Shown here one piece after another: positions 4,291 to 62,032 of a stretch of DNA of 64,000 bases. The notes under the pieces are model-generated. The model saw only the letters and a program-made list of their open reading frames with translations. It had not been told where the DNA came from and ran no database searches. Each line of letters starts with the position of its first letter. The first letter of the stretch is position 1. Source of the DNA: Octopus vulgaris (taxonomy: Eukaryota); contig OX597836.1 of NCBI GenBank assembly GCA_951406725.2, positions 15,872,001 through 15,936,000 on the forward strand, given 5' to 3'. Position numbers and translations under genes: made by a program.

Positions 4291-6858
4291 TAATAATAAT
4301 AATTATAATAATAATATTTTCTACTATAGGCACAAGGACTGAAATTTTGGGGGAGAGGGTAAGTCAATTACATCGACTCCAATATTTGACTGGTACTTAA
4401 TTCATCGACCCCCACCCACCAAAGGATGAAAGACAAAGTCAACCTGATGGAATTTGAACTCAGAACGTAAAGATGGATGAAATTTCACGAAGCATTTTGT
4501 CCAGTGTGCTAATGATTCTGCCAGCTCACCACCTTAAATAAAAATACTCTTTTACTTGTTTCAGTCGTTTGACTGCGGCCATGCTGGAGCACTGCCTTTA
4601 ATCGAGCAAATCGACCCCAGGACATCCGACCAATAATTCTTTCTGGTGGTGCTCCAGCATGACCGCGGTCAAATGGCTGGAATAGGTAAAAGATAAAGAG
4701 GATATATCTGTGTATATGCGTGTGTGTGTGTGTGTGTGTGTGAGCGTAAGTATAACGTGCACCAGTGCTTTGCCAGCATCCTTACACATGCAACAACAAC
4801 AAAAGCAACAGCAATGCAGCAACAACAACAGCACTGTGCAGCTGGTCATGTGTCAACTGCATAAACAACAAATGCAACTGTTCAACGGGCTCAACAAGAA
4901 CAAGAACAACAACAACCGAACTAGATGCACCTGACTTGCGGTTGTTACATGACTAAGTGGTGTTCTACAGTCGAACAGTTGCAGGTGCTCGGTAAAGCTA
5001 GGAGCGAGGGGGCAGGGTAGTGGTGGTGGGAGGACAGCTGCCAGTCTAAATACCCTCCCCAACCACCACCACCATCTCAGGTTGGTCTGTACCCTTGAAT
5101 TTATTCAAGAGTGACCCCTGGCATTTTTTCTTTGCTAACAGCAAAAAAAAAGGTGAGGGAAGTGGAGCTTGTTTAATGTAAGCAACCCATCGCTAATGAC
5201 CTAGTCTAGGTCATTGCCATGGAGACAATATGGCGGAGAAGGATACAGGAAGACCCAGTCTCTCACTCTCTCATTCACACACACACACACACGCGCATGC
5301 GTGTGCACAGCTTCAATGGTTTCGTGCTTTCTCACTACCGGTGAGTAAAGGCATGTAGTCCAGCGGTTAGGGTGTTGCACTCATGATCATAAGACCACAG
5401 TTTCAATTCCTGGACTGGGCAGAGTGTTGTGTTCTAAAGCAAAAGTACTTCGTGTCACGTTGTTCCTCTCCCACTCAGCTGTTAATGAATTCCAATAATA
5501 GCTGGGAAGTTAACCCTGCAAAGGATCAGCATCCTGTTTAGGGGTCAGGGAGCACGTCATAATACCTATATCTTTACTACCTACAAGGGGCTAAACACAA
5601 AGCGGACAACCAAGGACAGACAAACGGATTAAGTCGATTATATCGACCCCAGTGCGTAACTGGTACTTATTTAATCGACCCCGAAAGGATGAAAGGCAAA
5701 GTCGACCTCGGCGGAAGTTGAACTCAGAACGTAGCAGCACAAGGGGCTAAATACAGAGAGGACACACGGATTAAGTCGATTATAACGACCCCAGTGCATA
5801 ACTTTATTTATTTATTTTGGCACTCAGGCTACTAACACAGAGGGGACACTACAAGGACAGAGACAATACCACAGTGGGGACAATATGGCGAAATACCTAT
5901 CTCTTTGCTACCCACAAGGGGATAAACACAGAGAGGACAAAAAAGGACAGACAAACGGATTTAGTCGATTACTTCGACCCCAGTGAATAACTGGTACTTA
6001 TTTAATCGACCCCGAAAGGATGAAAGGCAAAGTCGACCTCGGCGGAATTTGAACTCAGAACATAACGGCAGACGAAATACCGCTAAGCATTTCACCTGGC
6101 GCGCTAACGTCTCTGCCTGCTCACCGCCTTACACGTCATAATAACAGTCACTTTTAAATGCCATAGAAACCGAGTTAAGCCCCAGCTTTATGAAACCTGG
6201 GTCCCATAACGGATCTAAATGCCAAAGTCTAACTGCTGATGATTGGTGGAGAACAACAAAACACCGAAAATCCTATTGATGCTAAAAAAAACAGCTAAAT
6301 CTTCCTCAATTCATCTCTCGCTTGTTTTAAATAAAGACCGATACATTGACCGACGGAGTGACTCATATAAATTGTTGCTGCACTAATATTTGTCACTATT
6401 AATGATTCATCATCATCATCATCAAGATAGAGGAAGCCTCAATGTAACCACCTGACCTGCTAGAAATAGCAGCAGAAGCTACCTCAAACCACATGGTAAT
6501 CTCCTGTATAAGAATAAGGCCCACCATATTTTGAAACAGGCACAGGTTTGGCTGTGTGGTAAGAAGTTTGCTTCCCAACCACATGGTTCTGGGTTCAGTC
6601 CCATTAAATGGCACTTTGGTCAAGCATCTTCTACTACAGCCTTCCAATCAAAGCCTTATGAGTGGATTTGATAGATGGAAACTGAAAGAAGCCTGTCCTC
6701 TATATGTCCTATATATATATATATATACACATACATATATACATATAGTCCAACCCATGCTAGCATGGAAAGCGGACGGTAAACGATGATGATGATGATA
6801 TATAAAATACATGTATATATATATAAAATATGCATGTATGTATGTATGTACTGTAAAG

Positions 6859-10130: not shown

Positions 10131-10348
10131 TTTATTTCAATGAAATTGGCAAATTTTATAAAAACTGACAGTTATTTTACTTAATTCTTTGTTATATTTT
10201 AAAGTAATTGAAAGAAACACAGAACATCTCAACAGAAATATGGTAACAAAAGGGTTAAACATAATAAACACAAATAAAAAGGAGTTTTAAAAAAAGGGTC
10301 CAATTTCACTGAAATAGTTAATTCTTCAGAATAAAAACAGATATTTAC

Positions 10349-10580
10349 CAAACTCCTGTCCTCCTCCCCATGCGGCACCACTCGAGTTGGTCAGCTGTTT
10401 TGATAAACTGTCCAATATGATGTTTCCGCCACTTGCACTGCTCTCAACAAATTCCTGGGCTCTTCCTTGCCTCTTCAATGCCATCAGGGCTTTGTAGTCT
10501 TGCAGCCATGCAAGGGACGAACACAAGAGGCAGAGGGTTTTACCAGTCCCTGTAGGACTTTCCAAGATGCCGTTCTGATT
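10349..10580 (-). CDS. RTEL1: RTEL1 coding exon 2 with Walker A/motif I ([27 protein letters not shown]...GGGQEF)
   Basis: Lies inside ORF 10326..10610. Acceptor CTGCAG|AAT at 10581/10580 and donor TTG|GTAAAT at 10349/10348. The exon is 232 nt (phase 0 to phase 1). [17 protein letters not shown] is the RTEL1-type motif I. Confidence 0.95.
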
Positions 10581-10906
10581 CTGCAGGAGTGAAATGAAAA
10601 AGATAACCATTAATAAGGATTGTACGAGGGGGTGCTGAAAAGTTCCTGGATTTTAGGGTATCGTGAAAGGCCTGGTTGGAGGCCCAACCTTCTGAGTTCT
10701 TTTATAGGGCTTAGAAAACCTAAAGGACTGCAATAAGTGTGTGAATCTGAGAGGGGAATATGTTGAATGAAATCATCATTGTCCTACAATAACATGGGGG
10801 TGGTCACAATTGGAACATATTTGATCATAGGTCTACTCCACCAGAGATGACCTGGGGTTAAACAACAACAACAACAAAAGTAAAAAGGGTTATTTCATAA
10901 GCTGAC

Positions 10907-11008: not shown

Positions 11009-11100
11009 GATGCTGGCTGAGGAAGAAAAAGGGGGGAACAAGGGGTATGGATACTGAAAAACAAAAGAAAAAAAAAGGAAAGAAATAATTATAACATTTA

Positions 11101-11839
11101 CTATCAGTATCGCCCAGCATTGCTCGGGTTTGTTTCAACCCTTTAGAATTGGAATTTTTGAAAAGTAAAAATTTTGCATTATGTAGCTTGTTATTCTCTT
11201 TAAGTGCACATTTTTCTGGTTGAAATACACCGGAAAATGGTAACACAGCAGTCAAAAACTCGTAAAAGATAGGGATCTTCACAGAAAAAAAGCACCTTTT
11301 TGATGTAAATAATTTTTGGTGTTAACATGGTCCGATTTGATTTTTATCTTCTACGGAAAGAAGAGCAAGCCTTCTTCTATCATACTCTCAATTTTGGTCA
11401 ACTTGCGCTGCATGGTCTCAGAGGAGATAGTGTTAGTTGAAGGCTACCAAACCTGCCATACACAGACAACTTCAGCTTTATATATAGACTATCAGTATCG
11501 CCCAGCATTGCTCGGGTTTGTTTCAACCCTTTAGAATTGGAATTTTTGAAAAGTAAAAATTTAGCATTATGTAGCTTGTTATTCTCTTTAAGTGAACATT
11601 TTTCTGGATGAAATACACCAAGAAATGGCGACACAGCAGTAAAAGAATCGTAAAAAAATAGGGATTTTCATAGAAAAAAAGCACCTTTTTTATGTAAATA
11701 ATTTTTGGTGTTAACACGGTTCTTCTATCATACTCTCAATTTTGATCAACTTGCGCCGCAGGGTCTCGGAGGAGATAGTGTTAGTTGAAGGCTACCAAAC
11801 CTGCCATACACAGACAACTTCAGCTTTATATAGAGAGAG
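11101..11839 (-). mobile_element. Head-to-tail dimer of non-autonomous Helitron
   Basis: Each unit has a 5' TC(TATATAAAGCTGAAG) and a 3' hairpin CCCGAGCAATGCTGGG followed by (C/A)TAG. The direct junction is at 11488/11489. Confidence 0.75.
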
Positions 11840-23711: not shown

Positions 23712-23742
<31 letters not shown>

Positions 23743-23744
23743 CA

Positions 23745-23974
23745 CAGGGTTGGCCAGAAGCCACCCAACAGTAAATCAAAATTCCATAAATACAATCTGT
23801 AATTCTGTATCGACTGCAATGGGAAAATGTGTCACTCAAGAAAGACTTCAGTTTGAACGATTTTAATGATGTTTCATATTTAGATGCTTTTATTAAATTC
23901 ATTCAGTTGTTGAACATAAATAAATCTTGGAATTAAATGGTTTTGATTTACTGTCAAGTAAGTTTTGGTCAACC

Positions 23975-23978
<4 letters not shown>
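23745..23978. mobile_element. Tc1/mariner-like MITE
   Basis: TIRs CAGGGTTGGCCA / TGGTCAACCCTG, embedded in TA repeats. Confidence 0.65.
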
Positions 23979-24032
<54 letters not shown>

Positions 24033-24954
24033 GGAAAGTTCATGAAGAAAACAAAAGACGAAGACAGATGGTGTACAAAACAAACAGATGTATTAGTATA
24101 ACGCTTAGGAAATTGAAAAAGTCTTTTACATTTCGAGCCTACGCTCTTCTACCAGAAAGGGGCACAGAAAAAAAACAAGGAGAGAAAAAAAATGTATGTG
24201 GTGGCTACCGATCTATCATGGCTTCTGCCGGACAGGTTTCTTTCAGTTTCCGTCTATGAAATCCACTCACAAGGTTTTGGTCAGCCTGAAGCTATAGTAG
24301 AAGACATTTGCCCATGCAGTGGGACTGAACCCGAAAGCATGTGGTTGGGAAGCAAGCTTCTTACCACGCAGCCACTCCTGCACGTATACATTATATATAT
24401 ATATATATATCAAGTATGTATATGCTACACACAGGAAAACATTACATTGTATTCAATCAAACGATAAATAATCCCTCAACCACTACCACCACCACCACCA
24501 CCACCACTGTTACCTGTTCCCTCCCACAATGCACACCTACATGTTGAAACACTTCCTGCATCACCTGGTACCACAACTCCCCCACATGCAGAGAACAACA
24601 GCGAAAACACAACACTACTGCAACAATAGGCGGCCTGATGCATTTGAGTGCACACATGAAATTGCAAGCATGAATTGATGCAAAACAATTGCAACACTAA
24701 TCACAGATGTTAGTTTGATGTTGCCGTGCAACACATGCACAATGCTAATTGCACATCCTGTTAAGGAGATGCACGTTATGAGTGCATACAACATGCAACC
24801 GATGCAGGAGAGAAGAATGTGCGCAGTATCTACTCTAATGAATCGCTGAAGACAATGGCCCACACATACACAAACGTGCCTCAACATACACAAATACACA
24901 GACGTGTATATACACAAATGTATATATACACACACACTAATACATGCTCCCATG

Positions 24955-24997
<43 letters not shown>

Positions 24998-25058
24998 CGA
25001 CACACATTGAAATATGCAATTGAAAGGCATTGAATGATTTTTCAGTTTAATATATATA

Positions 25059-25452
25059 CTAGCGGTATAGCCCAGCGTTGCTCGGGTTTGTTTTCTTTTC
25101 GACCCTTTAGAATTGGAATTTTTGAAAAGTAAAAATTTGGCATTATGTAACTTGTTATTCTCTTTAAGCGAACATTTTTCTGGTTGAAATACACCGAAAA
25201 ATGACAACACAGCAGTCAAAAAATCGTAAAAAAATAGGGATTTTCATAGAAAAAAAGCACCATTTTGATGTCAATTTTTGGTGTTAACATGGTCCAATTT
25301 GAATTTTTTCTTCTACGGAAGGAAGAGCAAGCCTTCTTCTATCATATTCTCAATTTTGGTCAACTTGCGACACAGGGTCTCGGAGGAGATAAGTGTTAGT
25401 TGAAGGCTACCAAACCTGCTACACACAGACAACTTCAGCTTTATATATAGAG
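25059..25452 (-). mobile_element. Non-autonomous Helitron (same family)
   Basis: A-CTAG end with hairpin; homologous body. Confidence 0.78.
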
Positions 25453-25911
25453 ATTATACATGAAAAACAAACTATATGTACACAATAAAATATATAAACA
25501 CATGCAGACACATACAAAAACACACACACACACAATTTCAAAGATTATGATTAAAATATAATGAAATACGGCAGAATCCAATAAAACATGTCTGCCCTGA
25601 GTTTCATGTACAACAATACATGCAAGTTATACATAGACCATGTATGTATGTGTGTGTGTATAATTAGGTATGCATATATATTTCTTTATTACCCACAAGG
25701 GGCTAAACATAGAGGGAACAAGCAAGGACAGACAAGGGGATTAAGTCGATTACATCGACCCCAGTGATTAACTGGTACTTATTTAATCAACCCCGAAAGG
25801 ATGAAAGGCAAAGTTGACCTTGGCGGAATTTGAACTCACTGATGTCGAAAAACGAACAGTAAGCATAATTAAATTTCAGAATTAGATTAAAACAGTAATC
25901 GCTCGATAATG

Positions 25912-26136
25912 TAAAGTATAGAAGCCATCTTACCGCCCGTTGACGAGGGACAACAATCCCGAAACTAGTACGAGCGTATCACTCAGGCTTGCGAGGAAGG
26001 GATGGCCTCCCTTTGCAAATATTCCAAGGACACTGATATTGTGTCTAGAGCCAGCTAGAGACGAAGATCTCTTGGGGCTATAAAGCTACAGTAACCCCCC
26101 CCCCAATGTGGTTAGCCATAATAAGATGGCTTCTAT

Positions 26137-26142
<6 letters not shown>
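25912..26142. mobile_element. Short element with 21-bp perfect terminal inverted repeats carrying a hammerhead (Penelope-like-derived?)
   Basis: TAAAGTATAGAAGCCATCTTA (25912-25932) pairs with TAAGATGGCTTCTATACTTTA (26122-26142). The element has internal hairpins and abuts (TA)n. Confidence 0.6.
25934..25976 (+). ncRNA. Minimal type I hammerhead ribozyme motif
   Basis: Reads CGCCCG-UUGACGA-GGGA caacaa UCCC-GAAA-CUAG-UA-CGAGCG. Stem I has 5/6 pairs, stem II is 4 bp, stem III is palindromic and the triplet is GUA. The core has C3U. Confidence 0.65.
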
Positions 26143-26199
<57 letters not shown>

Positions 26200-26361
26200 G
26201 TGTGAGTGATTGTGTATAGAAGAATATATTAATAAAAAGAATTCCAACCTTGTCTGATTTTCACGTTTTATTTACAATCTTATAATGATATATTATAAGA
26301 TAATATATTATAATAGAATAAAATAAAATGAAATAGTAGAATGTTAAATGTTCATTCTGAT

Positions 26362-26405
26362 TGAACTAGTACTTTCATGCATTGAATCTGCAATCTTCGG
26401 GTTCA
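26362..26405 (-). ncRNA. Hammerhead-like motif in left arm of long palindrome (inverted copy, sense to RTEL1)
   Basis: Reverse complement of the 26484-26528 motif, with loop II one nucleotide shorter. Confidence 0.55.
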
Positions 26406-26483
26406 TGTAGTAGTGTTGACAGTCATGCTTCACAATTTTTGACAGTCAAAAATTGTGAAGCATGACTGTCAACCACTACTACA

Positions 26484-26528
26484 TGAACCCGAAGATTGCA
26501 GAATTCAATGCATGAAAGTACTAGTTCA
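26484..26528 (+). ncRNA. Hammerhead-like motif in right arm of long palindrome
   Basis: Reads UGAAC-CCGAAGA-uUGCA gaauucaa UGCAu-GAAA-GUAC-UA-GUUCA. It has a perfect 5-bp stem I and palindromic stem III (AGUACU). The core has U4C and there is a U.U pair at the base of stem II. Confidence 0.55.
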
Positions 26529-26660
26529 ATCAGAATGAACATTTAACATTCTACTATTTCATTTTATTTTATTCAATTATAATATATTATCTTATAATAT
26601 ATCATTATAAGATTGTAAATAAAACGTGAAAATCAGACAAGGTTGGAATTCCTTTTATTA

Positions 26661-26709
<49 letters not shown>

Positions 26710-27393
26710 TAGGAGCTCACCTAGCTCTGCCTGAGATTTGAAACCAAATCTACACACGTGTTGCTTGTCAAACAACTGTTTGATTCCTTTGTGTTTTATC
26801 TCCATGTTGGGAAATTAATGAGAAACCTCTGACCTCCTATGACCTTTGATGGTCACCGAAGGATCAGTCCTTTGTTTCAGGTTTGACCTACTTCCTGGCC
26901 ATACCCTATATAACCAAGATCATATCTCACTTGTTCTCTTCCGTTGGCAAACCTCCAACTGGGAGCAATTGGCTTCCTACACCGAATAGCATCTGGAAAG
27001 GGACAACATAATCCTTACTCCTTCTTCCTCTCTGTCAGCAGAACACACAGTTTCCACACCATCACTACCTGCAAGCAACCAACACACCATTACAACTGTC
27101 AATTACTACTATGAATATCTTACTAACCACTGCCAGCAAATAAATTTGTGAATATTATTCCTTTCCTTTTCAGTCTCATTACAATGTTTCATCCTGCTTT
27201 TGACTATCTACATATGACCCGGCACAGAACAATTTCTACATCAAGTAACTTTTCATCTGTACAATACAACTGGTACCTCCAATGTGAGAACCTTACTTCG
27301 TACATTACATATGACGACCCTTAACACCTTACCACTACATTTGGTAACTCCGATGTACATACACATCTGTCAGTATACACACACACTCACACG

Positions 27394-27459
<66 letters not shown>

Positions 27460-27461
<2 letters not shown>

Positions 27462-27655
27462 ATTCATAAAAAAACAAAAGACGAAGACAGGTGGTGTAGA
27501 AAACAAACAGATGTATTAGTATAATGCTCAGGAATAGAAAAAAAGTCTTTAACGTTTCGAGCCTACGCTCTTCTACAGGAAGGGACACAGAAAGAAACAA
27601 GGAGAGAAAATAAAGAATGTGTAGTGGCTAGTGATCTATCATGGCGAATGCCAAA
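27460..27655 (-). mobile_element. Dispersed repeat family with GAGCGTAGGCTC hairpin (other copies ~24035-24230 minus, ~57775-57945 plus)
   Basis: Three homologous copies in the window, each adjacent to (TA)n. Confidence 0.7.
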
Positions 27656-28039
27656 TGTACTGATCTGTGATAAAAAATTCAACAAAACAAGTACTTTAAA
27701 TAAATACTATATATATATATATATATATAAAACGGATTTCTCTAAGTTTCTGTCTACCAAATCCATTCATATGGTTTTGGCTGGCATATGGCAATAGTAG
27801 AAGGCACTTGCCAAAGGTGTCATGAGTGGGACTGAACTGAGGACCATGTAGTTGGGAAGCAGACTTCATATCACACAGCCATGTCTGTGCCTACACATAC
27901 ACACACAATGGGCTTCAATGAAAAATGCCACTGGTATGATGGTGAGGTTAATTTACAATCATCACAGGATGTCAAGACAAGGGTACACACAAACACATAT
28001 ACATAAAGAATATGACGGGCTATCATATTAAAATCATAT

Positions 28040-28602
28040 TAAAATATGTACAGTAAATGTTAAGATACACACCATAAAGTAGTGTAGCTTAGTGAATGAA
28101 ATCATGAAATCAGCTGTTGTCTTATTGGTCTTTTGGAGCTCATACTGCATTGTAGTTCCAATATCTACCGTTAGGCATCTTTGTCACCTGTGATTGTTCT
28201 GAATTCAAATTTGTTAAAGTCTGTTTATTGGCTACTTTCTCATTCTCATTCATTTGTGACTTTATTTTTTGCCCCCATGGTTCCTAAGAAAATTCATAGT
28301 GAAAGTGCTAAGCATCATGCTATAATGCAGGAAGATAAACTGGCTATGGTAAAACGCCGTGAAAAAGTGGTAGCAATTGCACGATCTTTTGGGATGAGTC
28401 AGACGACTGTATCAACAACTGTACATAATACGGACAAGATTTTAGCACATATCAAATCTGAAGCCCCAGGTATGAAGAACACTGTTATCCATAGGCTTAG
28501 CCTAGAGACAAGTAAATTTGGCCTGGCCTATCCTAGAGACAAGTTAATTTGACTTAAGTCGTGTCTTCTCAAACCAATTAATGACGGGTGAGGTATACCT
28601 GT
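28040..28602 (+). mobile_element. Tigger/pogo-like relic (CENP-B-type HTH)
   Basis: Encodes MVPKK...KVVAIARSFGMSQTTVSTTVHNTDKI. The end GAGGTATACCTG-TA resembles a Tigger TIR. Confidence 0.7.
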
Positions 28603-28868
28603 ATATATACATATATATATGCTCAAGTTGGTCTGGGGCCATAGTAAAAGACATTTGCTCATGGGACCATACAGTGGGATTGAAACCTGAACAATGTGGT
28701 TGGAAAGCAAATGTTTTACCATACAGCCACTCATATATATAGTGGAGGAAAGTTACGGAAGGAGACCCCAAGAAGACACGCTGAAACTGATAAGTTTTGA
28801 GGCCATAAGCAGCAGATGGGGGGACACACAAAGACACACAAGCATAAATATACATACACATACAAGCG

Positions 28869-28912
<44 letters not shown>

Positions 28913-29321
28913 AGCGTATATAATATATATAGGAGTGGCTGTGTGGTAAGTAGCTTGTTTACCAACCACATGGTTCCAGGTTCAGTCCCACTGCGTTATG
29001 TCCCTGTTACTTAGCGGTTCGGCAAAAGAGACCGATAGAATAAGTACTGGGCTTACAAAAAGAATAAGTCCTGAAGTCGAGTTGCTCGATTAAAAGGCGG
29101 TGCTCCAGCATGGCTGCAGTCAAATGACTGAAAGAAGTAAAAGAGAGAAAAAGAGAAAAAAGATATATATATATCATCATCATCATCATCATCATCATCG
29201 TTTAGCGTCCGCTTTCCATGCTAGCATGGGTTGGACGGGTCAACTGGGGTCTGTGAAGCTGGAAGGCTTCGTCAGGCTCAGTCAGATCTGGCAGTGTTTC
29301 TACGGCTGGATGCCCTTCCTA

Positions 29322-29364
<43 letters not shown>

Positions 29365-29899
29365 TGCATATACACATACAACCAAATCCATTGCTAAGGG
29401 ATTGGTCAGCCCCAGCTCTAGCAGAAGACACTTCCCCAAAGACATTTGCAATGCAGTGGGACTGAACCTGAAACCATGTGGTTTCAAAGCAAGCTTCTTA
29501 ACCACACGGCCATGTCCACTCCGCACCTATAAAACAGACAATAAAAAAAATAAAAAAATAAAAAACACGAGTTCATTTATTTGTGTTGCTATGGAGATGA
29601 TTGATACATTATCATCATCACAACAGGGTAGAAACTACCAATACACTGTGAGCACTATGTTGCTGTAATTGCCAACATCAACACCACCACCACCAATACT
29701 ACTACCACTACAACTACTACTACTGCTGCTGCTACTACTACTATTATTTCACTACCATCGAAATAATCATTAAAACTTCCCCATCACTACCATCTCTAAT
29801 ACTACTGCTAATACTACTACCAATACTCCTGCCATGACTATCATTATCATTTATACCACCACCACTACCACCACTAGAAATACTACTATGTCCAATCCT

Positions 29900-30630
29900 C
29901 ATCATGACCATCACTGCCAATTCTAACACCATCATGAACAAAAAGCTACGACCAATACTAAGAATATTACTGTGACCAATCACAACATGACCACCACCAC
30001 CAATTTTATCATCATCACTACCTCTATTAATATCATCACCAACAAAGCTACCACCACCACTATGTTCAATCCCAACGTGACCACCACCATCAATACTAAC
30101 ATAATCACTATCTCTTTATTAATATCCCCACCAATACTAAGAATACTACTGTGTCCAATCCTAACATGACCATCACTGCCAAGTCTAACATCATCACTAC
30201 CTCTATTAATATCACCACCAATATTAAGAATACTACTATATCCAATCCTAACATGACCATCAGTACTTCTTTATTAATATTATCACCAACAAAGCTACCA
30301 CCACCATGTTCAATCCCAACGTGACCACCACCACCAATACTAACATCATCACTACCTCTTTATTAATATCACCACCAATACTAAGAATACTACTGTGTCC
30401 AATCCTAACATGACCATCACTGCCAAGTCTAAAATCACCACCAACAAAGCTACCACCACCATGTTCAATCCCAACGTGACCACCACCAATACTAACATCA
30501 CTACCTCTTTATTAATATCACCACCAATACTAAGAATACTACTGTGTCCAATCCTAACATGACCATCACTGCCAAGTCTAACATCATCACTACTTCTTTA
30601 TTAATATCATCACCAACAAAGCTACCACCA
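29900..30630. repeat. Complex ACC/ACT-rich tandem repeat with reshuffled modules
   Basis: Recurring blocks CCAATACTAAGAATACTACTGTGTCCAATCCTAACATGACC and CAACAAAGCTACCACCACC. Confidence 0.85.
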
Positions 30631-31627
30631 CCACCACCACCACCACCATCATCATCACCATCACTGCTGCCATTACCAATTCAGCATCCAATTTTGCAAG
30701 CTGCCAATAGCTAAGCAGGTCTGAATGAAAAGACAATTGGCACCAAACCAAAAGTACACAGTTCCTGGCACTGTGGAGGTGGTCATGGCTTGGACAGACA
30801 GTCCTGATTATTAAAACAAAACAAAACAAAACAACAACAACAATAATGACTTGTTTTATTTGCCAGAAGGGCAGATAAAAAGAAAAAGAAGAAAGTACTA
30901 CGAAATCATTTGTCCTAAATGTTGACCAATAATGAAAGCGCAAACTTCTCTGACAAGATATCGGTATTCTGCATCAGCTGATTGTTCGATAGATTATCTT
31001 TGACAAACCACTGCGTCGTAGATGCTCATTCCGTGTTTATTCATTTTTGCAAACTGACCGGGCGTGGCCGTGCGATAAGAAGTTTGCTTCCCTACCACAA
31101 TGGTTCTGGGTTCAATCCTACAGCATAACACCTTGGGCTTGTGTCTTTTACTGACCAAAGCCCTTGTGAGTGGATCCGTTACACAGAAACAGAAAGAGGC
31201 CTATTCTGGCTTCAAATTTTTACCAGTTTATATATAGATACATACATAATCATCATCATCATTTAGTGTCCGTTTCCCATGCTGGCACGGTTTGGATGGT
31301 TTGACTTGAACAGAGAGCTGCACAAGGCTCCATTGTCTGCTTCGGCAAGGTGTCTACAGCCGGATCCCTTCCTAATGCCAACTAGTTTACAGAGAGTACT
31401 GGGTGCCCTTTGTATGTGGCACCCACACTGACAAGGTCACCAAGTAACTTGCATAACAAAAACTCCTTCAGTTAGGAGGGAGTTGTGGGAGGGGGTGGGG
31501 CCTTTCTACCAGTTTGTATATATAGATACATACATAATCGTCATCATCACCATTTAGTGTCCGTTTCCCATGCTGGCGTGGGTTAGATGGTTTGACTTGA
31601 ACAGGGAGCTGCACAAGGCTCCTTCCT

Positions 31628-31800
31628 CTTCTTGTCTTGAGACAGCATTCACCCGGGGTGGGTTGAGCTGGCTTCATTCATCCTCAATGCTGCATCTCTT
31701 ACAAACGCCGACCAGGCCTGGCGATTTGAGGCTAACGACTGCATGATCGCCAACCACTCATTCCAGCGGCGAATACCGTAGATATGGGGGCCTAGGTTGG
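31628..31800 (-). mobile_element. RTE-like LINE 3' end (different family)
   Basis: Encodes LGPHIYGIRRWNEWLAIMQSLASNRQAWSAFVRDA* followed by a (CAAGA/AAG) tail. Confidence 0.65.
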
Positions 31801-34232
31801 GTTCCAGATCAGCCTTGGCTTGGTTTCTACAGCTGGATGCCCTTCTTAATGCCAACTACTCCAAGAGTGTAGTGGGTACCTTTTACATGTCACTGGCACT
31901 GGGCAAAACTATGATTTCACTTGGCCAACCAAGCACAGCAAATTGTCAAAGGTCTCAATCATTTGTCATTACCTCTGCATGACTCAACATCTGAAGACCA
32001 TGCTTCACCACCTCATCCCATGTATTCCTGGGTCTACCCATTCCACAGCTTCCCTCCACAGTTAGAGATCAGCACTTCTTTACACAACTGTCCTTGTCCA
32101 TACACATCATGTTGATATGAGCAGAGTCTTCTCTCTTGCATACATCTGATGTCTCTTACGCCAAATTTTTCTCTCAAGATGCCTACACTGTCGTATGTGC
32201 ACACTGACATTACACAGGGTGGTGGGAGATCTGTGCTACTGACTCCTTGCCTTGATATCGCATGTTATATGTAAATGAAAGTAACACTCATGCAAATGGT
32301 GTCTTTTGTTCATCTCCTGTGAAAGCATGTCTGGTCGTGGGAAAAAATATTACCTTGATTGGAAACAGGGTAAGGTTTGTGACAGGAAGAGCATCCGGCA
32401 GCAGAAAATCTTCCTCGACAAAATTTTGTCCATCCTATGCAAACATGGAAGAGATTTTTTTTATCTTTTACTTGTTTCAGTCATTAAACTGCGCCCATAC
32501 TGGGGCACTGCCTGGAAAAACTTCAGTCGAATGAATCGACCCCAGCACTTTTTTTAACCTGGCACTTATTCTATTGGTACCTTTTTTTTTTGCTGAACAG
32601 CTATGCTAGAGGGATATAAACACACGAATGCCATTGTCAAATGGTGGTGGGAGACAAACACAGACACAAAGACACACACGACAGGCTTCTTTCAGTTTCC
32701 ATCTACCAAATCCACTCACAAGGCTTTGGTCAACCCAAAGCTATAGTAGAAAACATTTGCCTAAGGTCCCATGCAGTGGGGACTGAACCTGGAACCATGT
32801 GGTTGGCACAAACACACACAAATATACATATATCTAACAGGCTTCTTTCAGTTTCTGTCTACGAAATCCACTCACTGGGCTTTGGTTGGCCTGAGGCAAT
32901 TGTAGAAGACACTTGCTTAAGGTTCCACAAATGGAACTGAACCCAGAACCATGTTCTTGGGAAGCAAACTTCTTACGAGACATATATAGAGAATCCTAGG
33001 CCCTCCACACACACACACACATCCAAGAGTAGACTGTGTACCTTTTATGTAGCACCAGTACCCCATATTACCACTCATAACTTTTTTATTTCATGGGATT
33101 CTCAGAAAATTTGTGTTCCAGACACGGGAATTCACATGATTATGCAAAAACCACAAAAAGAAATATTTTCTATGGTTTAAGGGTTATTTAGCTGTTATTT
33201 TTAGCGCATCTCACGACCACCTGATATCCTCCTCGTTTGTTTGTCAGTTTGATGTATTGATGTTTTTCAATATCTTTCTCCCCATAAACACACTTAATGG
33301 TCTGTTGCTGGGATTTAACAAAAAAATTCGGACTGTCCGTATACTGAACTTTGATTTTTTTAAAAATTCGAAAAATTAAAAAACACATTTTTTTTTTTTA
33401 AATATCGAAAAAATAAATTTTTTTTTCATAGTCGTATCAATTCCCGTGTGTAGAATAACAAATTCGCAAAAAATTTCTGAAAATTTCAAACAAAAAAAAA
33501 ATTGAGGGTTATATGGGATGCTTAAACGAGAATTCTGCCTAAAATTTTTTACACATTGCTGTACGTATAAAAATAAAATCGATAATTTAGGTGTAACTAA
33601 CAACAGATTGGTGCCCCGCCCACGGTTTTCTTATAACTTTTTTTTTTTTTTAATGACATTTTGCAGAGATCGTTTTCGGCGGTATGCATTGCGATTATAT
33701 TAATATCATTAACTGTTGGGCGAGAGAAAGATTTTTGGCAACGTTTCATAGCCGGATTTTCAGATCATCCCAACCACTCACGACTTTACTTTACTTTCTT
33801 TAAAGTTCATAATTTTTAATGGTGCATTACAAAAACACATTTCCTGGAGAGTAGATTACGTAATTTTGAAGTTTCAAACATAGACAGCAGGAGAAAATTG
33901 AAAAATACGAAAGTTAGGCAAACTGAGGATAAGAAAATCGTTAAAACAAAACTTAAGAAAAAAATTTTTTGAGAAATTTTATCAAGATCATAATCTTTAC
34001 CCTCGAAAATATATTTCTGCAAAATTACATAAATATACAGTCTACAGATAATTATGTGGAAACAAAGTTGATGGGGGCTCTAAACTGTAGTTATGCCATA
34101 TTTTTTTCCTATTTTATATGCTTTCAACGCTATTACGAATATGAGATTGCCACTTATGTCTGGACGAGATAGGACGGGCCCGTGGCTAAACAACTACAAC
34201 ATTCCTGTATTCCTTAATTATTATCGTATATA

Positions 34233-34486
34233 GCAGGGACCCCAATCACCGATTCGTGGATCAATTTGTATCCGGGCACACAGAAAGAATAAATTTTAGA
34301 ATCTTATTTCTGTCTCATTGACTATTGCAGTCTGCAGGTGTTTTTGGCATTTACGTAATAGTTAAATTACACATTATGCATTTCATTGTTTTGCTATGCG
34401 CGTGACCCTCCCCTCGGGTACGTGGAAAAATTGTCTTGCGTCATAATCCCGGTCTATGGTGCAAAAAAAGGGTTAGGGGCCGCTGG
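34233..34486. mobile_element. hAT/Charlie-like MITE
   Basis: Ends CAGGGACCCCAA... / ...GGTTAGGGGCCGCTG resemble Charlie-type termini; diverged. Confidence 0.45.
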
Positions 34487-34792
34487 TAAATGGTTTATAA
34501 ACCCTCTAAAAAAAAAAAACAACATAGAAAATAAGTCAGCTGATTAATTTACACGTGAACTGCGGAAATCGAAAACTAATCTGATTTTTTAATATATTTT
34601 CCTAATTCGTCAGCAATTTTAAAATTGTACATGGATTTATAAGTTCACGGAAGGTGTGTAATACATTCAATGAAATGTTTGTAGCATTTCCACAGCTAAA
34701 ATCTAAGACTCGTTGTTGTTACATAAAAGACACGTTGCTGTTACATAAAAACCGAATACAATTCCAAACAAGATATAAACAACAACACTTAC

Positions 34793-34935
34793 CTATAAAT
34801 AAATATATATATACAGCGATATGGAAATATAAAACGAGTGTATAAGAATATAAAACGGTTGTTTATAAACAGAATAAAGCGGTTTGCTTTCTGTCTAACG
34901 TTGGCGCAACGTAGACGTTCCCGCCATATTTTTAA
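34793..34935 (-). promoter_or_regulatory. Candidate RTEL1 promoter and non-coding first exon
   Basis: Unique CpG-containing island with a YY1-type CCGCCATATT (34921-34930) and E2F-like TTCCCGCC and TTGGCGC. A perfect minus-strand donor ATAG|GTAAGT lies at 34793/34792. The ATG exon has an acceptor, so an upstream exon is required. Confidence 0.55.
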
Positions 34936-35749
34936 ACCTGTTCCCCAGGAAATGAATGAAACGTAAGAACTAAAAGAAAAAAATAATAATCAAATGGGTT
35001 TAGATTAATTTTCATTAAAACACGATGCCTCATTAAAGGCATTTTAATTTAAAAAGAAAAATAACAATTTTTTTTTCCATCATGAATTATTTTAAATATA
35101 ACTTTTTCCTTATTTTTTTCTCTTTCCCTTTAGAAACTTTTAGAGATGGGGCGGTGTACATACATTTTTTGTCAACCGATATAAATTATTCCGAGAAAAA
35201 AATCCATTCAATTTAGTGATTTTTTTTTATAGGAATGGATGATTATTATTATTATTATCGTTAACACGCTTTTATTAAAATGCTTGACGGTTATTTCGTC
35301 TAGTTTTTACGTTCTGAGTTCAAATTCCACCTCGGTCAACTTTGCCTTTCATCCTTTCGGGGTCGATAAATTAAGTACCAGTTACGCACTGGGGTCGATA
35401 TAATCGACTTAATACCTATGTCTGTCCTTGTTTGTCCCCTCTATGTTTAGCCCTTTGTGGGTAATAAAGAAATAGGGATTTCGTCAGCCGTTACGTTCTG
35501 AGTTCAAATTCCACCTCGGTCGACTTTGCCTTTCATCCTTTCGGGGTCGATAAATTAAGTACCTGTTATGCACTGGAGTCGATGTAATCGACTTAACTCT
35601 TTGTCTGTCCTTGTTGCCCCCCTCTATGTTTAGCCCCTTGTGGGCAATAAAGAAATGAGAAACTCTGTCAGACCAGACTGGAGCCTGGTGCAGCCCCTGG
35701 CTATCCAGACCTCATTCAAACCATCCAAGCATGGAGAACGAACGTTAAT

Positions 35750-35950
35750 CGATGTGATCGATTATACCCCTCCCCCAAATGTGATCGATTATACCCCCCC
35801 TCCCCCAAATGTGATCGCTTATACCCCCCCCAAATGTGATCGATTATACCCCTCCCCCAAATGTGATCGATTATACCCCTCCCCCAAATGTGATCGATTA
35901 TACCCCCCCCCCCCCAAATGTGATCGATTATACCCCCCCTCCCCCAAATG
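35750..35950. repeat. ~27-30 bp minisatellite (GATCGATTATACCCC..CCCCAAATGT) x~7
   Basis: Visible tandem units with variable C-run length. Confidence 0.9.
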
Positions 35951-36217
35951 TTCAGGCCTTGTGCTTTTAGTAGAAAAGATTATTATTATTATTGAAATAT
36001 TAATATTCCTAAATCTCTCCAAAGGAGACTAAGGCAGCAGTGCTGGATATTAATAGTTATCGACAAGCTAACATGGCAGTCCAGATAAATAGGACGAATG
36101 CTGCCGTTGATTAGCTCCAAGTGGTCATCGCCTGTAGCTTACTATGTGACACACAAACTTGTATCCATTACAAACTTTGTACAGGGGAGGTCAGCAGCTT
36201 CCCCTGCTGGTTCAACA

Positions 36218-36260
36218 TCCACAGACTAGTTTCGGGGTAATTGCCCCTTCTCAATGTGGA
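36218..36260 (-). ncRNA. Minimal type I hammerhead ribozyme motif (U3-A8 core variant)
   Basis: Minus strand reads UCCACA-UUGAGAA-GGGG caauua CCCC-GAAA-CUAG-UC-UGUGGA. It has a perfect 6-bp stem I, a 4-bp GC stem II, palindromic stem III (ACUAGU) and a GUC cleavage triplet. Confidence 0.75.
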
Positions 36261-36318
36261 GTAGCCAAACCCAGTAGGCATCGCTGCTGACTGTCTGTCT
36301 GAAGGTTTATTTACAAAT

Positions 36319-36487
36319 ATGGATTTTCAACAGACAGGATATCCTAATATAAGTTTTTGCAAATATTTTATCAAAGTTTAGTTTATTTCTTCTACAATAG
36401 TGGCAGCATGGAATTCTTTCATTCTCTAGCTCTGATGAAATATTTGCAAAAAATTATATTAAGTTATCCTGTCTGTTGAAAATCCAT
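36319..36487. repeat. Imperfect inverted repeat (~55 bp arms) between two hammerhead-like motifs
   Basis: ATGGATTTTCAACAGACAGGATA (36319-36341) pairs with TATCCTGTCTGTTGAAAATCCAT (36465-36487), and pairing continues inward. Confidence 0.75.
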
Positions 36488-37371
36488 CTTTTTGCAACTG
36501 AAGATGGTGCTATATTTTAAATTGATATAATGGTTGCATTGTTCGATTAAATGGAGATGCCTGAAACAGCCATATTGCATTAATACCTTGACATCCTTGT
36601 TACATATTTGATATATAATTATATATATACATATACACTCACGGAGTGGTTGGCGTTAGGAAGGGCATCCAACCGTAGAAACATTGCCAGATCAGACAGG
36701 GCCTGGTGCAGCCTTCTGGCTTCCCAGACCCCAGTTTGAACCGTCCAACCCATGCTAGCATGGAAAGCGGACGCTAAACAATGATGATGATGATGATTAC
36801 ACATACATATATATGTACACACATATACACCACAGGCTTCTTTCAATTTCTGTTTACCAGGTTCCAATTCACCTACAAGACATTGTTAGCCTAAAGCTGT
36901 AGAATATGACACTTGTGCAAGGTGCTGCACAGTGGGACTGGAGCTGAAATCACATGATTACAAAGTGATCTTTTTAACAACACGTCCATACCAAGGCTTT
37001 AATTAGTTGTTTAGTCTGACCCTATAAACACTATTTATCTAGATTCACTCCTACAACATTGTAACTGGTCAAATATAGAATATTTATTCTTCATTTTTCT
37101 TCATTTCCTTGTTTTTGTTTTTGTTTTGTTTTTGTTTTATGGGGTTTTTTTTTACCACCTTATTCAAAGTTGTCTTCAGTTCTTGGTTAGCACCTCAAAA
37201 AAAAAAAAAAATGACATGTCCGCTAATGAACCTACATGACATTTTCAGCAAAGAATTCTTTGTAGATAAGTTTGGCATTTAAATCTGTCCAAGATGCATA
37301 TGTTGCCAGTTCTGACATTTGCTTTATGATGATTAAACCATTCCTCATATTTCTGATTCACAGTGAACTCA

Positions 37372-45838: not shown

Positions 45839-46333
45839 CATCATCATTGTTCGACCGTGGTCGAGACAATGGAATTTACCATGCTACGCCAGACTTCACG
45901 GTCCATCATGGCATTACGGAGGTCCTGTTGCTGGATGCCTGTATCCCTGGAGATTACATCAGGGTAGGAGAGTGTGCGCCCTCTGGTATTGCGAGTAGAT
46001 GGCTTCCAGAGGAGAAAGAGTAGAAATTACTTCTTTTTCAGCTCTACAACAATGTCCAGCAAACTGGACTCTCCTACCTTTCACAAGAGATGACACAGAT
46101 GGTAGTTTCCCATATATTTGCATTTTGGTTGGATGGCGCTTCCACGAGAGATTTTGAGCTCTCATAAGGAGGCGAGTGTAGGTTCCATCTAACCGCCTCT
46201 CAAGCTTCTTTGGTGACGTCCAGGTTTCTGAGCCATATAGTAGAATTGGTTCGACTGTGGCTTTGAAGATTTCAAGTTTGAAGTCTCTACTTCGATTTGA
46301 TGACCAGATCTTATGCATGTCATTACAGGCATA
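45839..46333 (-). mobile_element. 5'-truncated RTE-clade LINE 3' end inserted in a SINE
   Basis: Encodes IFKATVEPILLYGSETW...RRVQFAGHCCR (post-RT region), has a (TGA)n tail and a TSD TCCAACCCA(T) at 45829 and 46335. Confidence 0.88.
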
Positions 46334-47588
46334 ATCCAACCCATGCTAGCATGGAAAACGGACATTAAACGACGATGATGATGATGATGATGACAGCGCC
46401 AGCATTTAAGAGTTAGACTTATTGCATGAACTCAGAGTTTCCTCTTCCCCAACCCTGTTCTTGAGCACTTTTTGGAGTACCCTCCCAGGTAGATTGCCTT
46501 CATTGCAGCAGTAGGATCTATCTTTTATACTCTTTTTACTCTTTTACTCTTTTACTTGTTTCAGTCATTTTGACTGCGACCATGCTGGAGCACCACCTTT
46601 ATTCGAGCAAATCAACCCCGGGACTTATTCTTTGTAAGCCCAGTACTTATTCTATCGGTCACTTTTTGCCGAACCGCTAAGTGACGGGGACGTAAACACA
46701 CCAGCATCGGTTGTCAAGCAATGCTAGGGGGACAAACACAGACACACAAACACACGCACACATACATATATATATATATATATACGACAGGCTTCTTTCA
46801 GTTTCCGTCTACCAAATCCACTCACAAGGCATTGGTCGGCCTGAGGCTATAGCAGAAGACACTTGCCCAAGATGCCACGCAGTGGGACTGAACCCGGAAC
46901 CATGTGGCTGGTAAGCAAGCTACTTACCACACAGCCACTCTTACACCTGTTTTTTTTTTTTAATGACATTGTAGGGTAGGTGTGAGAGGCTGAATCTAGC
47001 CAATTTGAACATAAAAATAGGTAGAATATTTGAGCTGAATATGAGTTTAATAACTAAAGGATTAAATCTTTCTCTAGAATGAATGCATTTGATTATAGAG
47101 ATAATAACAGATTAACAGATCCATGTCTAGATACTTCTCTTGCGGATGTGGGTTAAATTTCAGAGTTCACACGACTGGGAAGAAGTGATATGATTCATTG
47201 GACTTCATCTTGCAAGCTCAGCCATCCGCCTCTTCAAACAAACTAATAATTCTGAGTTAGCTAGAATGTCGTAGGTGGATTGCTTGTTTTTATCGACTGC
47301 CATTTATTACATCAACCTCGGAAATGGTGAAAAAGCATGTACACAGACATCTCAAAAGTAAATAGAGACCAACTTTTACATTTTACGTGTTTCAGTCATT
47401 AGACTGTGGCCATGCTGGGGCACTGCCTTGAAGAATTTTTAGTCAAATGAATTGGCTCCACTACTTGTTTTATTTTTTTAAAGCCTGGTACTTATTCTAT
47501 GAGTCTCTTTTGCCAAACTGCGAAGTTATAGGGACATAAACACCCCAAGGCCGGTTGTCAGGCAGTGGTGTGGGACAAACAGACACAA

Positions 47589-53559: not shown

Positions 53560-55140
53560 TGTATGTATGTATGTATATGTATATATATGTAAGAGAACAT
53601 AACCAGCTGAAATTGCAAAGATAATCTGGAACTCGACTGAGGATAGGAAACTCCAAATGATCTGTCCTTGTTTTCCTTGTATCGTCTGTCTGGATATTGT
53701 GTTTTATTTCTTTTGTAACTTGAACTGTAAACTTTAATTTGCCATTTCTATACATGACAACCAAGAAGAAATCTTGTGAAAATAGATTATTTTAATGAGA
53801 TAGCTTTTCTAATCTCCTGAGGAGATACATCTACTCTAAGGGATACCCCTAAACCAGTTGCGTAGTATCCTGCCCACAAAGGACCAATGCTAGGTGGGTC
53901 AAAACAATTGTAGTGATTGGTAAATATTTTCATCTCTTGCATCTCGTGTCTCATAAATTACATTCCCAACAAACACTAAGCCAGTGAACGCACTTTACCA
54001 GCAAACTACCAGCTCTATACCATATGATTTATTAACTAATATATATGTATCTCATATATATATATATATCATCATCATCGTGGAGGCACAATGGCTCAGT
54101 GGTTAGGGCAGTGGACAGGCGGCTGTAGGATCGAGGTTTTGATTCCCAGACCGAGTGTTGTGAGTGTTTATTGAGCGAAAACACCTAAAGCTCCACGAGG
54201 TTTGGGCTAGGGGGTGGGGTGGCGATCCCTGCTGTACTCTTTCACCACAACTTTCTCTTACTCTTTCTTCTGTTGGCCTGCTCTCTGAGCCAGTGGGGTG
54301 GCGTCATTTGAAGGCTAAAACAATGTGAAGCGCATTGTGACCAGCGATATGTAGCAACATCTGATTGCCTGGTTGATCACGGTGATATCATCACTATCAT
54401 CACTTAACATCTGTTGCACACACACATGCACACACACATTTATACCATGGGCTTCTTTCAGTTTTTCTGTCTACCAAATCTACTTGTATGGCTTTGGTGA
54501 GCCTGGGGCTATAGTAGAAGGCACGTGCCCAAGGGTCTGTGCAGTGGGACTAAATCCAAGATCACATGGTTGGGAATGATCCAACATTTCTCTGATAAAT
54601 TTATTCCTACCAGCCTTATTTTTGGATTTATTTAGCAAGATTCTAGGAAACTGAGAGAGAAACAGACAGACTTTTGCAGTTGGCAGGACTGGCAGGACTG
54701 GCAGGAAAGATAAAGAATGACTAGAGAGGAAAAAAAAAAGTCATGTCAGAAATATTCCATGATATTAGATGGAGAGGCATAAACTTGTAATAATTTCATG
54801 GTTGCCAGGGAAAAATATCCATGGATTATTCACATTGCTATTTGAACAAGAAGATAAATAGCCAATCAATATATGGATAGAAAGGGAGCAGGGGGTAAAA
54901 ACTAGAAGTGTCTGGAATGTAGAATTTGAATAAATGCCACACAATGTATCTCTGAACATTTGAAGGATGATTGAAAATCTCAAAGCTTTGGGGTCTATTA
55001 AATGTGAACCCAATCAAAAATGTGTTTGCTGGGGTATTTAGGTGAACCCAGTTCTAATGTAACAAATGACTGGGGTACAGAGTCATGCAGCAGGGGCCAG
55101 AGTCATGTGATGCACTGACCTCTCTCAATTATCATTATTA

Positions 55141-55533
55141 CTAGCCGTATCACCCGGCGTTGCTTGGGTTTGTTTTGACCCTTTAGAATTGGAATTTTTG
55201 AAAAGTAAAAATTTTGCATTATGTAGCTTGTTATTCTCTTTAAGTGAACATTTTTCTGGTTTAAATAAACCAAAAAATGCCGACACAGCAGTAAAAAAAT
55301 CGTAAAAAATAGGGATTTTCATAGAAAATAAAAGCACCTTTTTGATATAAATAATTTTTGGTGTTAACATGGTCCGATTGGAATTTTTTCTTCTACAGAA
55401 TGAAGAGCAAGCCTTCTTCTATCATACTCTCAATTTTGGTCAACTTGCGCTGCAGGGTCTCGGAGGAGATAGTGTTAGTTGAAGGCTACCAAACCTGCCA
55501 TACACAGACCACTTCAGCTTTATATATAGAGAG
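55141..55533 (-). mobile_element. Non-autonomous Helitron (same family)
   Basis: A-CTAG end, hairpin CCCGGCGTTGCTTGGG; homologous body. Confidence 0.78.
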
Positions 55534-61725: not shown

Positions 61726-61752
61726 TAAAAAAATACCTTTAAAGGTTAAATT

Positions 61753-62032
61753 TATAAACAAGGGCAAAAGAAAAAAATTTCAATGCCAAGTAGGCCGAAA
61801 TAGACTTAATTATCAACAACCATATAATTTATCACTATAAGCACGCGTCTCAAAAGCAAGCCGATAGAAATTTCTAAAAAATTTCGTTATTATCGGATCG
61901 GTCCCAATTTCTGTGTTAATTCATCTAGAATTTTCTCCTCATCAGCGATAAATATGTGTGCTTATAGTGATAAATTATATGGTTATTGAAATATTTGGCA
62001 TTGAAAAATTTTTTCTTTTGCCCTTGTTTATA
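61753..62032. mobile_element. Inverted-repeat element with decayed hammerhead-like core
   Basis: Outer IR is TATAAACAAGGGCAAAAG... and inner IR is 61818-61844/61958-61984. The minus strand has TATCG-CTGATGA...TC-CGATA at 61891-61950. Confidence 0.55.

Follow-up and report, generated by a model that had tools for sequence, protein, structure and literature searches.

Hammerhead motifs in a 64-kb stretch of the Octopus vulgaris genome as likely remnants of truncated Penelope-like retroelements

What are the short hammerhead-like motifs found in elements with apparent inverted repeats along a 64,000-nucleotide stretch of Octopus vulgaris DNA (hereafter the window)? An earlier note had described nine of them as an 'ecosystem' of sequence-unrelated ribozymes in non-autonomous elements mobilised by Penelope-like retroelements (PLEs). 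We found that the nine motifs represent six families (A, B, C, D, D2 and E) and eight insertions. We consider it probable (about 0.8) that they are minimal type I hammerheads and that the repeats around them are 3' ends of PLEs (pseudo-LTR parts), truncated on the 5' side and derived from six or more PLE families. The insertions would thus be likely PLE stumps, as judged from their sequence, and back-to-back pairs of truncated PLE copies likely pass for inverted-repeat elements, as has been reported before for other animals.

The motif observation was confirmed in part. Four of the nine motifs, 25934-25976 (+), 26362-26405 (-), 26484-26528 (+) and 36218-36260 (-), satisfy a descriptor written before any parsing. 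This descriptor returned six sites in the window against a mean of 0.3 and a maximum of 2 in 60 block-wise dinucleotide shuffles, which is the excess over shuffled sequence that the proposal implied. Two of its sites, 41922 and 47118, have weak stems, were missed by the two other descriptors and were dropped. A second descriptor gave four sites against 0.14-0.16 (maximum 3, 400 shuffles). A third, relaxed post hoc after the motifs had been seen, gave seven against 0.09-0.10 (maximum 1, 400 shuffles), and three motifs (27547, 36493-36579 and 61890-61951) are recovered by it alone. The remaining two, 24123 and 57818, fail all three descriptors, both being broken copies of family A.

PLE insertions are characterised by inverted 5'-truncated copies, a one-ended tail of 30-40 bp and a (TA)n bias (PMC8557442), the tail corresponding to the stretch that separates one RT start site from the other (PMC11167929). 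The insertion at 25934 (family B) can be compared with this anatomy part by part:

25858-25908, minus strand: multi-copy tail of family B, about 50 nt long and confined to the inverted (left) end
25909-25932, minus strand: family B inverted 3'-end copy (the apparent terminal inverted repeat), sharing 3 nt (25930-25932) with the forward copy
25930-26140, plus strand: family B forward copy, 5'-truncated, with the hammerhead at 25934-25976 and ending at (TA)28

The family B hammerhead has a U3.G8 core, a 4-bp stem II, an ACTAGT palindrome and its cleavage base at 25970. This family, one of the six, was compared with public contigs from four runs with three species labels (848, 835, 303 and 87 contigs; 30 of 30 bins covered), and the matches identify it as a multi-copy family. 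In the contigs the tail is contiguous with the inverted end and absent from the right end. What looked like a terminal inverted repeat is therefore an inverted 3'-end copy plus a one-ended tail, with 3 nt of microhomology at the joint. Upstream of 25930, other native sequence was present in 8, 10, 8 and 4 contigs of the four runs, and five contigs of run X1 and four of run X8 continue from 25932 into the reverse complement of the right end. Alternative junctions were each seen in one contig, with a short side of 21-25 nt that is below the 30-nt caution level. One junction is recurrent: the inverted tail runs directly into the sequence from 26082 on in 34, 38, 10 and 12 contigs from the four runs, under all three species labels. 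As this joint lies downstream of the hammerhead, the corresponding unit seems to lack a ribozyme.

Sixteen variable positions were listed for family B, and the hammerhead holds one of them, the cleavage-site base, which is A, C or T and never G; the stems are invariant at the 8% threshold. In addition 4, 9, 4 and 1 contigs hint at sister families with a different, G+C-rich stem III, although this is a mixed consensus (agreement 0.61-0.69). On the sequence evidence, the 25934 insertion can be accounted for by a 5'-truncated PLE copy of the ordinary kind plus an inverted partner. This anatomy is the published one of PLE insertions and not that of a MITE, which bears out the earlier warning that such elements may be taken for MITEs. 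The tail of about 50 nt exceeds the published length and counts against the PLE reading.

A 5'-truncated copy with an inverted partner can also be read directly in families C and E, listed here together with D and D2:

26228-26662, unstranded: family C, a 435-bp palindrome (98%) centred at 26444, its right end adjoining (TA)22
36218-36260, minus strand: family D hammerhead, in an element at roughly 35990-36314
36315-36491, unstranded: family D2 inverted arms (36315-36376 and 36430-36491, 90%)
36493-36579, plus strand: family D2 hammerhead relic, with TA-rich sequence about 38 nt downstream
61750-62035, minus strand: family E, forward copy 61957-61750 and inverted 3'-end copy 61958-62035, ending in (TA)4

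The motifs at 26362 and 26484, previously taken as separate, are mirror arms of the single family C palindrome and represent one event; both have C at position 4, a U.U closing stem II and an AGTACT palindrome. The family D hammerhead shows a U3-A8 covariation, a 6-bp stem I, an ACTAGT palindrome and a GUC site at 36224. From core to cleavage site it shares 24 of 31 bases with that of family B, with compensatory differences in the stems, so that the earlier 'sequence-unrelated' is too strong for the motifs of these two families; between their flanks blastn gave no match. The D2 relic keeps a 5-bp stem I, intact core boxes and a long helix II flanked by U.U in the MFE fold, and the left arm of D2 ends before any hammerhead. 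In family E the hammerhead (61890-61951) is decayed, stem II having only 2 of 4 pairs.

Family A presents a different picture:

24034-24222, minus strand: copy 1, hammerhead 24123-24159, 3' end adjoining (TA)26 at 23978-24029
27456-27645, minus strand: copy 2, hammerhead 27547-27582, 3' end adjoining (AG)n and then (TA)13
57750-57939, plus strand: copy 3 (5' boundary approximate), with a short (TA)n at its 3' end and a dead hammerhead at 57818-57853

The best-preserved hammerhead of this family, 27547-27582, has a U6 core, an extra A after A9, a 4-bp stem II, an ACGT palindrome and 3 of 4 pairs in stem I. The other two copies are 77-87% identical to it; the motif at 24123 has an additional G in the core, and at 57818 C3, G12 and the cleavage-site base are all altered. 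None of the three copies is bounded by inverted repeats or has an inverted partner, so the description of inverted-repeat-bounded elements holds for the arms of B, C, D2 and E and not for A. The hammerhead lies 90-95 nt from the end (hand count). All three copies share the 3' end, and the 5' boundary is identical in two, with the third within about 10 nt. This apparently fixed length of about 190 bp is unlike what random truncation would produce and argues against the reading as PLE stumps. A palindromic stem III, claimed for all motifs, was found in B, C, D and the 27547 copy; at 24123 it is broken by one transition, and at 36493 the stem as present is non-palindromic, with 2 of 4 pairs and two C.A mismatches.

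Dimerisation was assessed by the folding energies of artificial tandems, that is, on predicted structures. In families B, C and D the active dimer is predicted at or near the minimum-energy fold: -20.5 against an MFE of -22.7 for B (two monomers -7.0), -15.2, equal to the MFE, for C (-2.6) and -29.1 against -30.9 for D (-15.6). In the copies of A and E it lies 12-27 kcal/mol above the MFE, which counts against the PLE reading. Taken with the anatomy of family B and the literature, the tandem folding supports the proposed dimer-type architecture and link to PLEs.

In the window the hammerheads sit about 38-170 nt from cleavage base to repeat end and, where a 3' end is defined, are always oriented towards it. 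The reported adjacency to (TA)n was substantiated: (TA)4 or longer occurs within 2 nt of five of nine independently defined ends against a background of 1.7%. This may reflect insertion targeting or later growth of the microsatellite, and the four ends away from (TA)n count against the PLE reading. As had been stated, no RT or GIY-YIG ORF is visible: the 150 of 203 stop-free frames scanned gave no match to either, peptide patterns likewise pointed to none in the window, and the insertions are too short to accommodate such an ORF. Pfam returned no family in six read-through frames of 4,900 residues (22.8-37.5 kb), a search insensitive enough to overlook a CENP-B-like piece. Relics of Tc1/mariner and CENP-B-like elements are present in the window. 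Rfam gave no hammerhead family among the best 150 of 231 matches, those listed being all microsatellite-driven. The window contains no partial tandem or pseudo-LTR pair and no telomeric repeat arrays, which are relevant to the EN- Athena/Coprina types, and the 3' ends tested have no stable stem-loop (z from -0.7 to +1.4). The motif words looked up are absent from the PLE consensus files, and metagenome scans with one word each for families A and B gave 0 and 0 matches. Both matches of a genome scan fell in bacterial DNA whose flanks show no similarity, and were rejected as chance. Within these searches no family was linked to an RT or GIY-YIG ORF, and this, like the missing partial tandem, counts against the PLE reading.

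We suggest the following course of events. A full element elsewhere in the genome would be transcribed as a partial tandem, in which, following the literature, two hammerhead halves would pair through the palindromic stem III and cleave slowly with the help of protein. Its GIY-YIG endonuclease would then nick DNA that is AT-rich or (TA)n, and reverse transcription would set out from either of two start sites inside the element, on the downstream side of the ribozyme, giving ends with or without a tail. Synthesis would stop early and switch template at a microhomology. The product would resemble a TIR element or palindrome, a forward copy truncated at its 5' end with a short inverted copy of the 3' end attached, and this is the anatomy seen in family B. 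The stumps in the 64-kb window have no ORF and no same-strand partner (tandem) for any hammerhead, and several have broken stems or cores. Given the missing tandems and the decayed copies these loci are probably inert, and would decay neutrally.

Other origins have to be weighed. Chance matches in repeat-rich DNA are hardly credible as a general explanation and are refuted for B, C and D: the motif is short, Perreault 2011 cautions about chance matches, the two weak sites are probably of this kind and the third descriptor is post hoc, but 6 against 0.3 and 4 against 0.15 came from descriptors that had not been adjusted to take in further motifs, and the cleavage base is constrained across family B. 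MITEs of DNA transposons, or fold-back elements, that had taken up hammerheads and moved by cut-and-paste into TA would agree with the inverted arms of B, C, D2 and E, the TA-rich flanks and the transposon relics mentioned above. Nevertheless arm lengths run from 24 to about 215 nt, family A has no inverted ends and the motif keeps its orientation towards the 3' end; this origin is very unlikely overall, and for family B it is refuted by junctions and arm lengths that vary between copies and by ends that differ by the tail. Scattered monomers of non-LTR retrozymes producing small circular RNAs are most improbable. Their sizes (190-435 bp here), low G+C and type I topology are similar and monomers are known (bioRxiv 2026.07.22.740005; PMC7229834), but none of the 150 tandem arrays listed, of 158, covers a motif (the other eight lie beyond 62038), the motifs are of the minimal PLE type and inversion plus tail is the anatomy of PLEs.

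That at least some families are independent non-autonomous units, SINE-like passengers which a PLE enzyme copies in full, is unlikely as the main story, and does not exclude PLE stumps. The shared boundaries of family A and the recurrence of the 26082 junction favour it, as do non-autonomous PLEs in Chlamydomonas (PMC8557442) and the dispensability of the hammerhead for insertion in vitro (PMC11167929). On the other side, family A has three copies, with a SINE in the 5' flank of one and a microsatellite array in that of another, and a solo pseudo-LTR would look identical; the recurrent junction belongs to a unit seemingly free of ribozyme, and the copy of B in the window does not represent a fixed unit. 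Non-autonomous elements, as originally proposed, are unneeded for B, the sole family tested, and possible for A and the hammerhead-less junction.

Returning to truncated PLE ends, the annotation of short palindromes or 'TIR' elements beside (TA)n should consider that they can be PLE stumps, for which the hammerhead is a cheap diagnostic. The supplement of PMC13282606 puts PLEs at 6.83% of O. vulgaris, divided among 190 families, and the text of that paper does not mention hammerheads; a census of ribozymes would bring in further families, and some repeats now labelled 'MITE' or 'unknown' could change class. We would extend this, tentatively and with considerable doubt, to about 100,000 hammerhead-bearing PLE ends in the genome (from eight insertions per 64 kb), some now independent passengers: family A a fixed, ORF-less, (TA)n-targeting PLE-dependent SINE of about 190 bp whose ribozyme has U6, at a core position that is otherwise nearly invariant, and the hammerhead-less family B fold-back a unit amplified prior to the divergence of three species. 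If true, the core variants (U3.G8, U3-A8, C4, U6, long helix II, none) would form a series provided by nature for testing the purpose of PLE hammerheads. The variants are usable test cases for that role, a question these loci leave unanswered.

Among known systems, EN+ PLEs have a single ORF with a telomerase-like RT and a GIY-YIG endonuclease, and pseudo-LTR partial tandems 'often', not always (PMC8557442). The Hydra-clade PLEs, including Hydra-1_Obim (Craig et al. 2021, PMC8557442), resemble our families in (TA)n targets and a hammerhead close to the 3' end, and a U.U flanks stem II in C and D2 as in 14 of 25 families of File S2 (own count). In Penelope-13_HM, too, an inverted copy is 5'-truncated and each strand bears a motif. 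However, the Hydra clade mostly has a stem III of 4 bp closed by a loop of 1-3 nt, in contrast to the 6-nt even palindromes of B, C and D; the published Octopus Hydra-1 hammerhead differs from the window's motifs, no match in sequence to published consensuses was found, and the clade is defined by RWK, DKT and CxCX5C motifs and RT phylogeny while our families are known without RT. Poseidon PAc of Anolis (Frangieh et al. 2024, PMC11167929) is similar in its AT-rich targets, in a ribozyme placed upstream of the RT start sites and in the one-ended tail to which its two internal start sites give rise. Its ORF begins inside the hammerhead and no such frame is evident in the window; the absence of a stable stem-loop at the 3' ends tested also enters this comparison. 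Non-LTR retrozymes (PMC7229834; bioRxiv 2026.07.22.740005) are alike in being short, ORF-less, type I and proposed to be PLE-mobilised, and differ in forming head-to-tail arrays with canonical motifs, which the window lacks.

A close likeness is also seen to the metazoan PLE hammerheads of Cervera & de la Pena 2014 (PMC4209133), as far as the accessible parts of that paper describe them: U3-A8, an extra base after A9, palindromic 15.2-16.2 and many dimer-type minimal families per genome, with pairs on opposite strands separated by 100-700 bp. Our families have in common with them the type I topology, the palindromic stem III and the short helix I, as well as the extra base after A9 (family A), the U3-A8 pair (D), mostly single motifs and opposite-strand pairs a few hundred bp apart (C). 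Helix II is mostly 4 bp here, and very long in D2, against 7-8 in S. mansoni, and we found no mention in those parts of the cores U3.G8 (B), C4 (C) and U6 (A). The motifs are real, and the many minimal hammerhead families that suggested an 'ecosystem' are the published norm per genome; the families of this window are likely further members of an already described hammerhead-bearing PLE type.

We consider it probable (about 0.8) that the hammerhead motifs of the window are real and well explained by the known biology of Penelope-like retroelements (PLEs), as parts of 5'-truncated 3' stumps of several PLE families. A descriptor fixed before any parsing matched six sites, against 0.3 (maximum 2) per shuffle in 60 local dinucleotide shuffles, and four of these (25934, 26362, 26484 and 36218) are motifs of the earlier note. 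A second descriptor gave 4 sites versus 0.14-0.16. The third, relaxed post hoc after motif inspection, gave 7 versus 0.1 (maximum 1) in 400 shuffles and newly gained 27547, 36493 and 61891, an excess that is less telling because the descriptor is post hoc. The matches at 41922 (+) and 47118 (-), weak and recovered by neither later descriptor, were dropped and are probably due to chance.

The motif count thus lies above the level of shuffled sequence. The hammerhead topology proposed for the named motifs is matched by the first four and, post hoc only, by the three gained later; the 27547 family also includes 24123 and 57818, both as broken copies. The nine motifs form six families in eight insertions. 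These had been described as unrelated, with differing stems that still pair; the stem I arms of 25934 (family B) and 36218 (family D) do differ yet pair in both, but the two motifs share 24 of 31 bases from core to cleavage site.

Part of 24035-28000 is covered by public runs under four species labels. Family B was followed in public contigs from four runs, aligned on 25845-26138 at 80% likeness (848, 835, 303 and 87 contigs; 30 of 30 bins covered, a depth that is not a copy number). Only one of its 16 variable positions, the cleavage-site base 25970 (A, C or T), falls within the hammerhead. In 8, 10, 8 and 4 contigs the sequence 5' of 25930 is not that of the window, so the window's own copy is truncated at this point, 10 nt before the core. 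The 'TIR' of 24 nt repeats the right end in reverse complement, and in 5 and 4 contigs it extends further along that complement. It overlaps the forward part by 3 nt. Other 'TIR' junctions, in single contigs, lead to 25999, 26054, 26094 or a longer upstream piece, with short sides of 21-25 nt that are weak alone. The segment 25858-25908 is multi-copy and continuous with the inverted end, and is absent from the right end, which enters (TA)28. A junction between this inverted tail and the final 57 nt of B occurs in 34, 38, 10 and 12 contigs, a recurrence which suggests one amplified fold-back, probably without the ribozyme. Contigs at 25974 also hint at sister families that share B's downstream part; in these a GUC site seems to be preceded by a stem III unlike that of B and rich in G+C.

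The layout of B is repeated, in window copies alone, by family C (the 26362/26484 palindrome), whose two arms read outward from centre 26444, and by family E (61891), whose 78-nt inverted end meets the forward copy 12 nt 5' of the core. A 9-nt near-palindrome (26440-26448) lies in the middle of C; it is repeated 23 nt leftward (26417-26425) and mirrored on the right, which suggests snap-back priming at this internal palindrome. Counted from the core, the 5' cut is 10-12 nt upstream in B (25930) and E (61957), immediately beyond stem I, and 44 nt upstream in C. For B and E this may be chance, or the cut may correspond to a pause of the RT, to the 5' end of an RNA or to a splice site. In D. virilis an intron ending at helix I is described (PMC4209133). 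Family D2 has inverted arms, the left one interrupted. Its motif at 36493 keeps the two core boxes, with stem I of 5 bp and helix II long, but its stem III is non-palindromic through two C.A mismatches, each one transition short of a pair. Since the copies of family A (24123, 27547, 57818) share both ends to within about 10 nt and all carry U at position 6, they may represent a fixed passenger or a solo pseudo-LTR. U4C and A6C reduce hammerhead activity, and 'A6U' is not among the changes noted in the excerpt of PMC3088659.

Within a monomer of B, C or D, stem III is limited to a single pair. On artificial tandems, the active dimer was computed at -20.5 kcal/mol for B (two monomers -7.0, MFE -22.7), -15.2 for C (-2.6, MFE -15.2) and -29.1 for D (-15.6, MFE -30.9); for the A copies and E it lay 12-27 kcal/mol above the MFE. 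No same-strand tandem of any one family's motifs occurs in the window, and a transcript across C is predicted to fold as a single hairpin (-324 kcal/mol) with the motif buried, so that on these models cleavage by the loci is unlikely.

The surroundings are repeat-rich eukaryotic DNA (G+C 34-45%, CpG o/e 0.41, 158 tandem-repeat rows). Their SINEs resemble those of octopus, and comparisons with octopus genomes apply only if the host is one. Other features are:

28175-28549, + strand, CENP-B-like HTH relic
61011-61439, - strand, mariner DDE relic (E 1.8e-25)
45959-46345, - strand, LINE C-terminal fragment with 149 relatives
35752-35951, a 30-bp unit repeated seven times, directly left of family D

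An unclassified repeat of about 345 bp has five copies, 79-89% identical (25057-25400, TA-flanked; 3953-4292; 11096-11437; 11480-11785; 55139-55479), two of them in tandem and all without a hammerhead match. The element of about 275 bp at 23724-23998, set between TA runs with 58-nt inverted ends (84%), likewise has no hammerhead match and looks like a conventional MITE, in contrast to family B. A weak DEAD-box helicase match (E 0.0026) at 10329-10652 (-) is possibly a host exon.

The earlier note placed several elements beside (TA)n and linked them to PLEs. Among nine ends defined via copy alignment or arm symmetry, five are no more than 2 nt from a (TA)n tract with n of at least 4, and the other four are 32, 37, 177 and 279 nt away; as background, 1.7% of positions are found 6 nt or less from one of the 93 tracts. 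As that note had observed, no RT or GIY-YIG ORF is visible: the 150 longest of 203 complex stop-free frames gave no match, and the same scan did detect the mariner DDE and CENP-B-like pieces. Scans of sequence collections for family relatives gave no usable match, and the window words compared with the PLE consensus supplement of PMC8557442 gave there no more than two 9-nt matches, both unrelated. Membership in PLEs is therefore argued from anatomy. If eight insertions per 64 kb, in this one selected window, scale, a gigabase-size genome would hold more than 100,000.

PLEs are abundant in octopus genomes (PMC13282606; PMC8967140), and the literature searched, short of most subscription papers and Repbase, yielded no octopus hammerhead census. 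PLE ends bear minimal dimer-type hammerheads, in many variable families per genome; U3-A8 and an extra base after A9, opposite-strand pairs 100-700 bp apart, and mostly single motifs, attributed to truncated PLEs, are all reported, with low activity in vitro, as dimers only (PMC4209133). Retrozymes are defined as tandem arrays (PMC7229834; bioRxiv 2026.07.22.740005). Families C and D2 carry U.U, like 14 of 25 Hydra-clade motifs; the hammerhead of the Octopus member in that list differs from those of the window (PMC8557442). A tail at one end mirrors two internal RT start sites (PMC11167929). Such a tail, together with an inverted, 5'-truncated copy beside the main one and a microsatellite as target, is how PMC8557442 (sections 6 and 11) describes PLE insertions, and family B shows all three.
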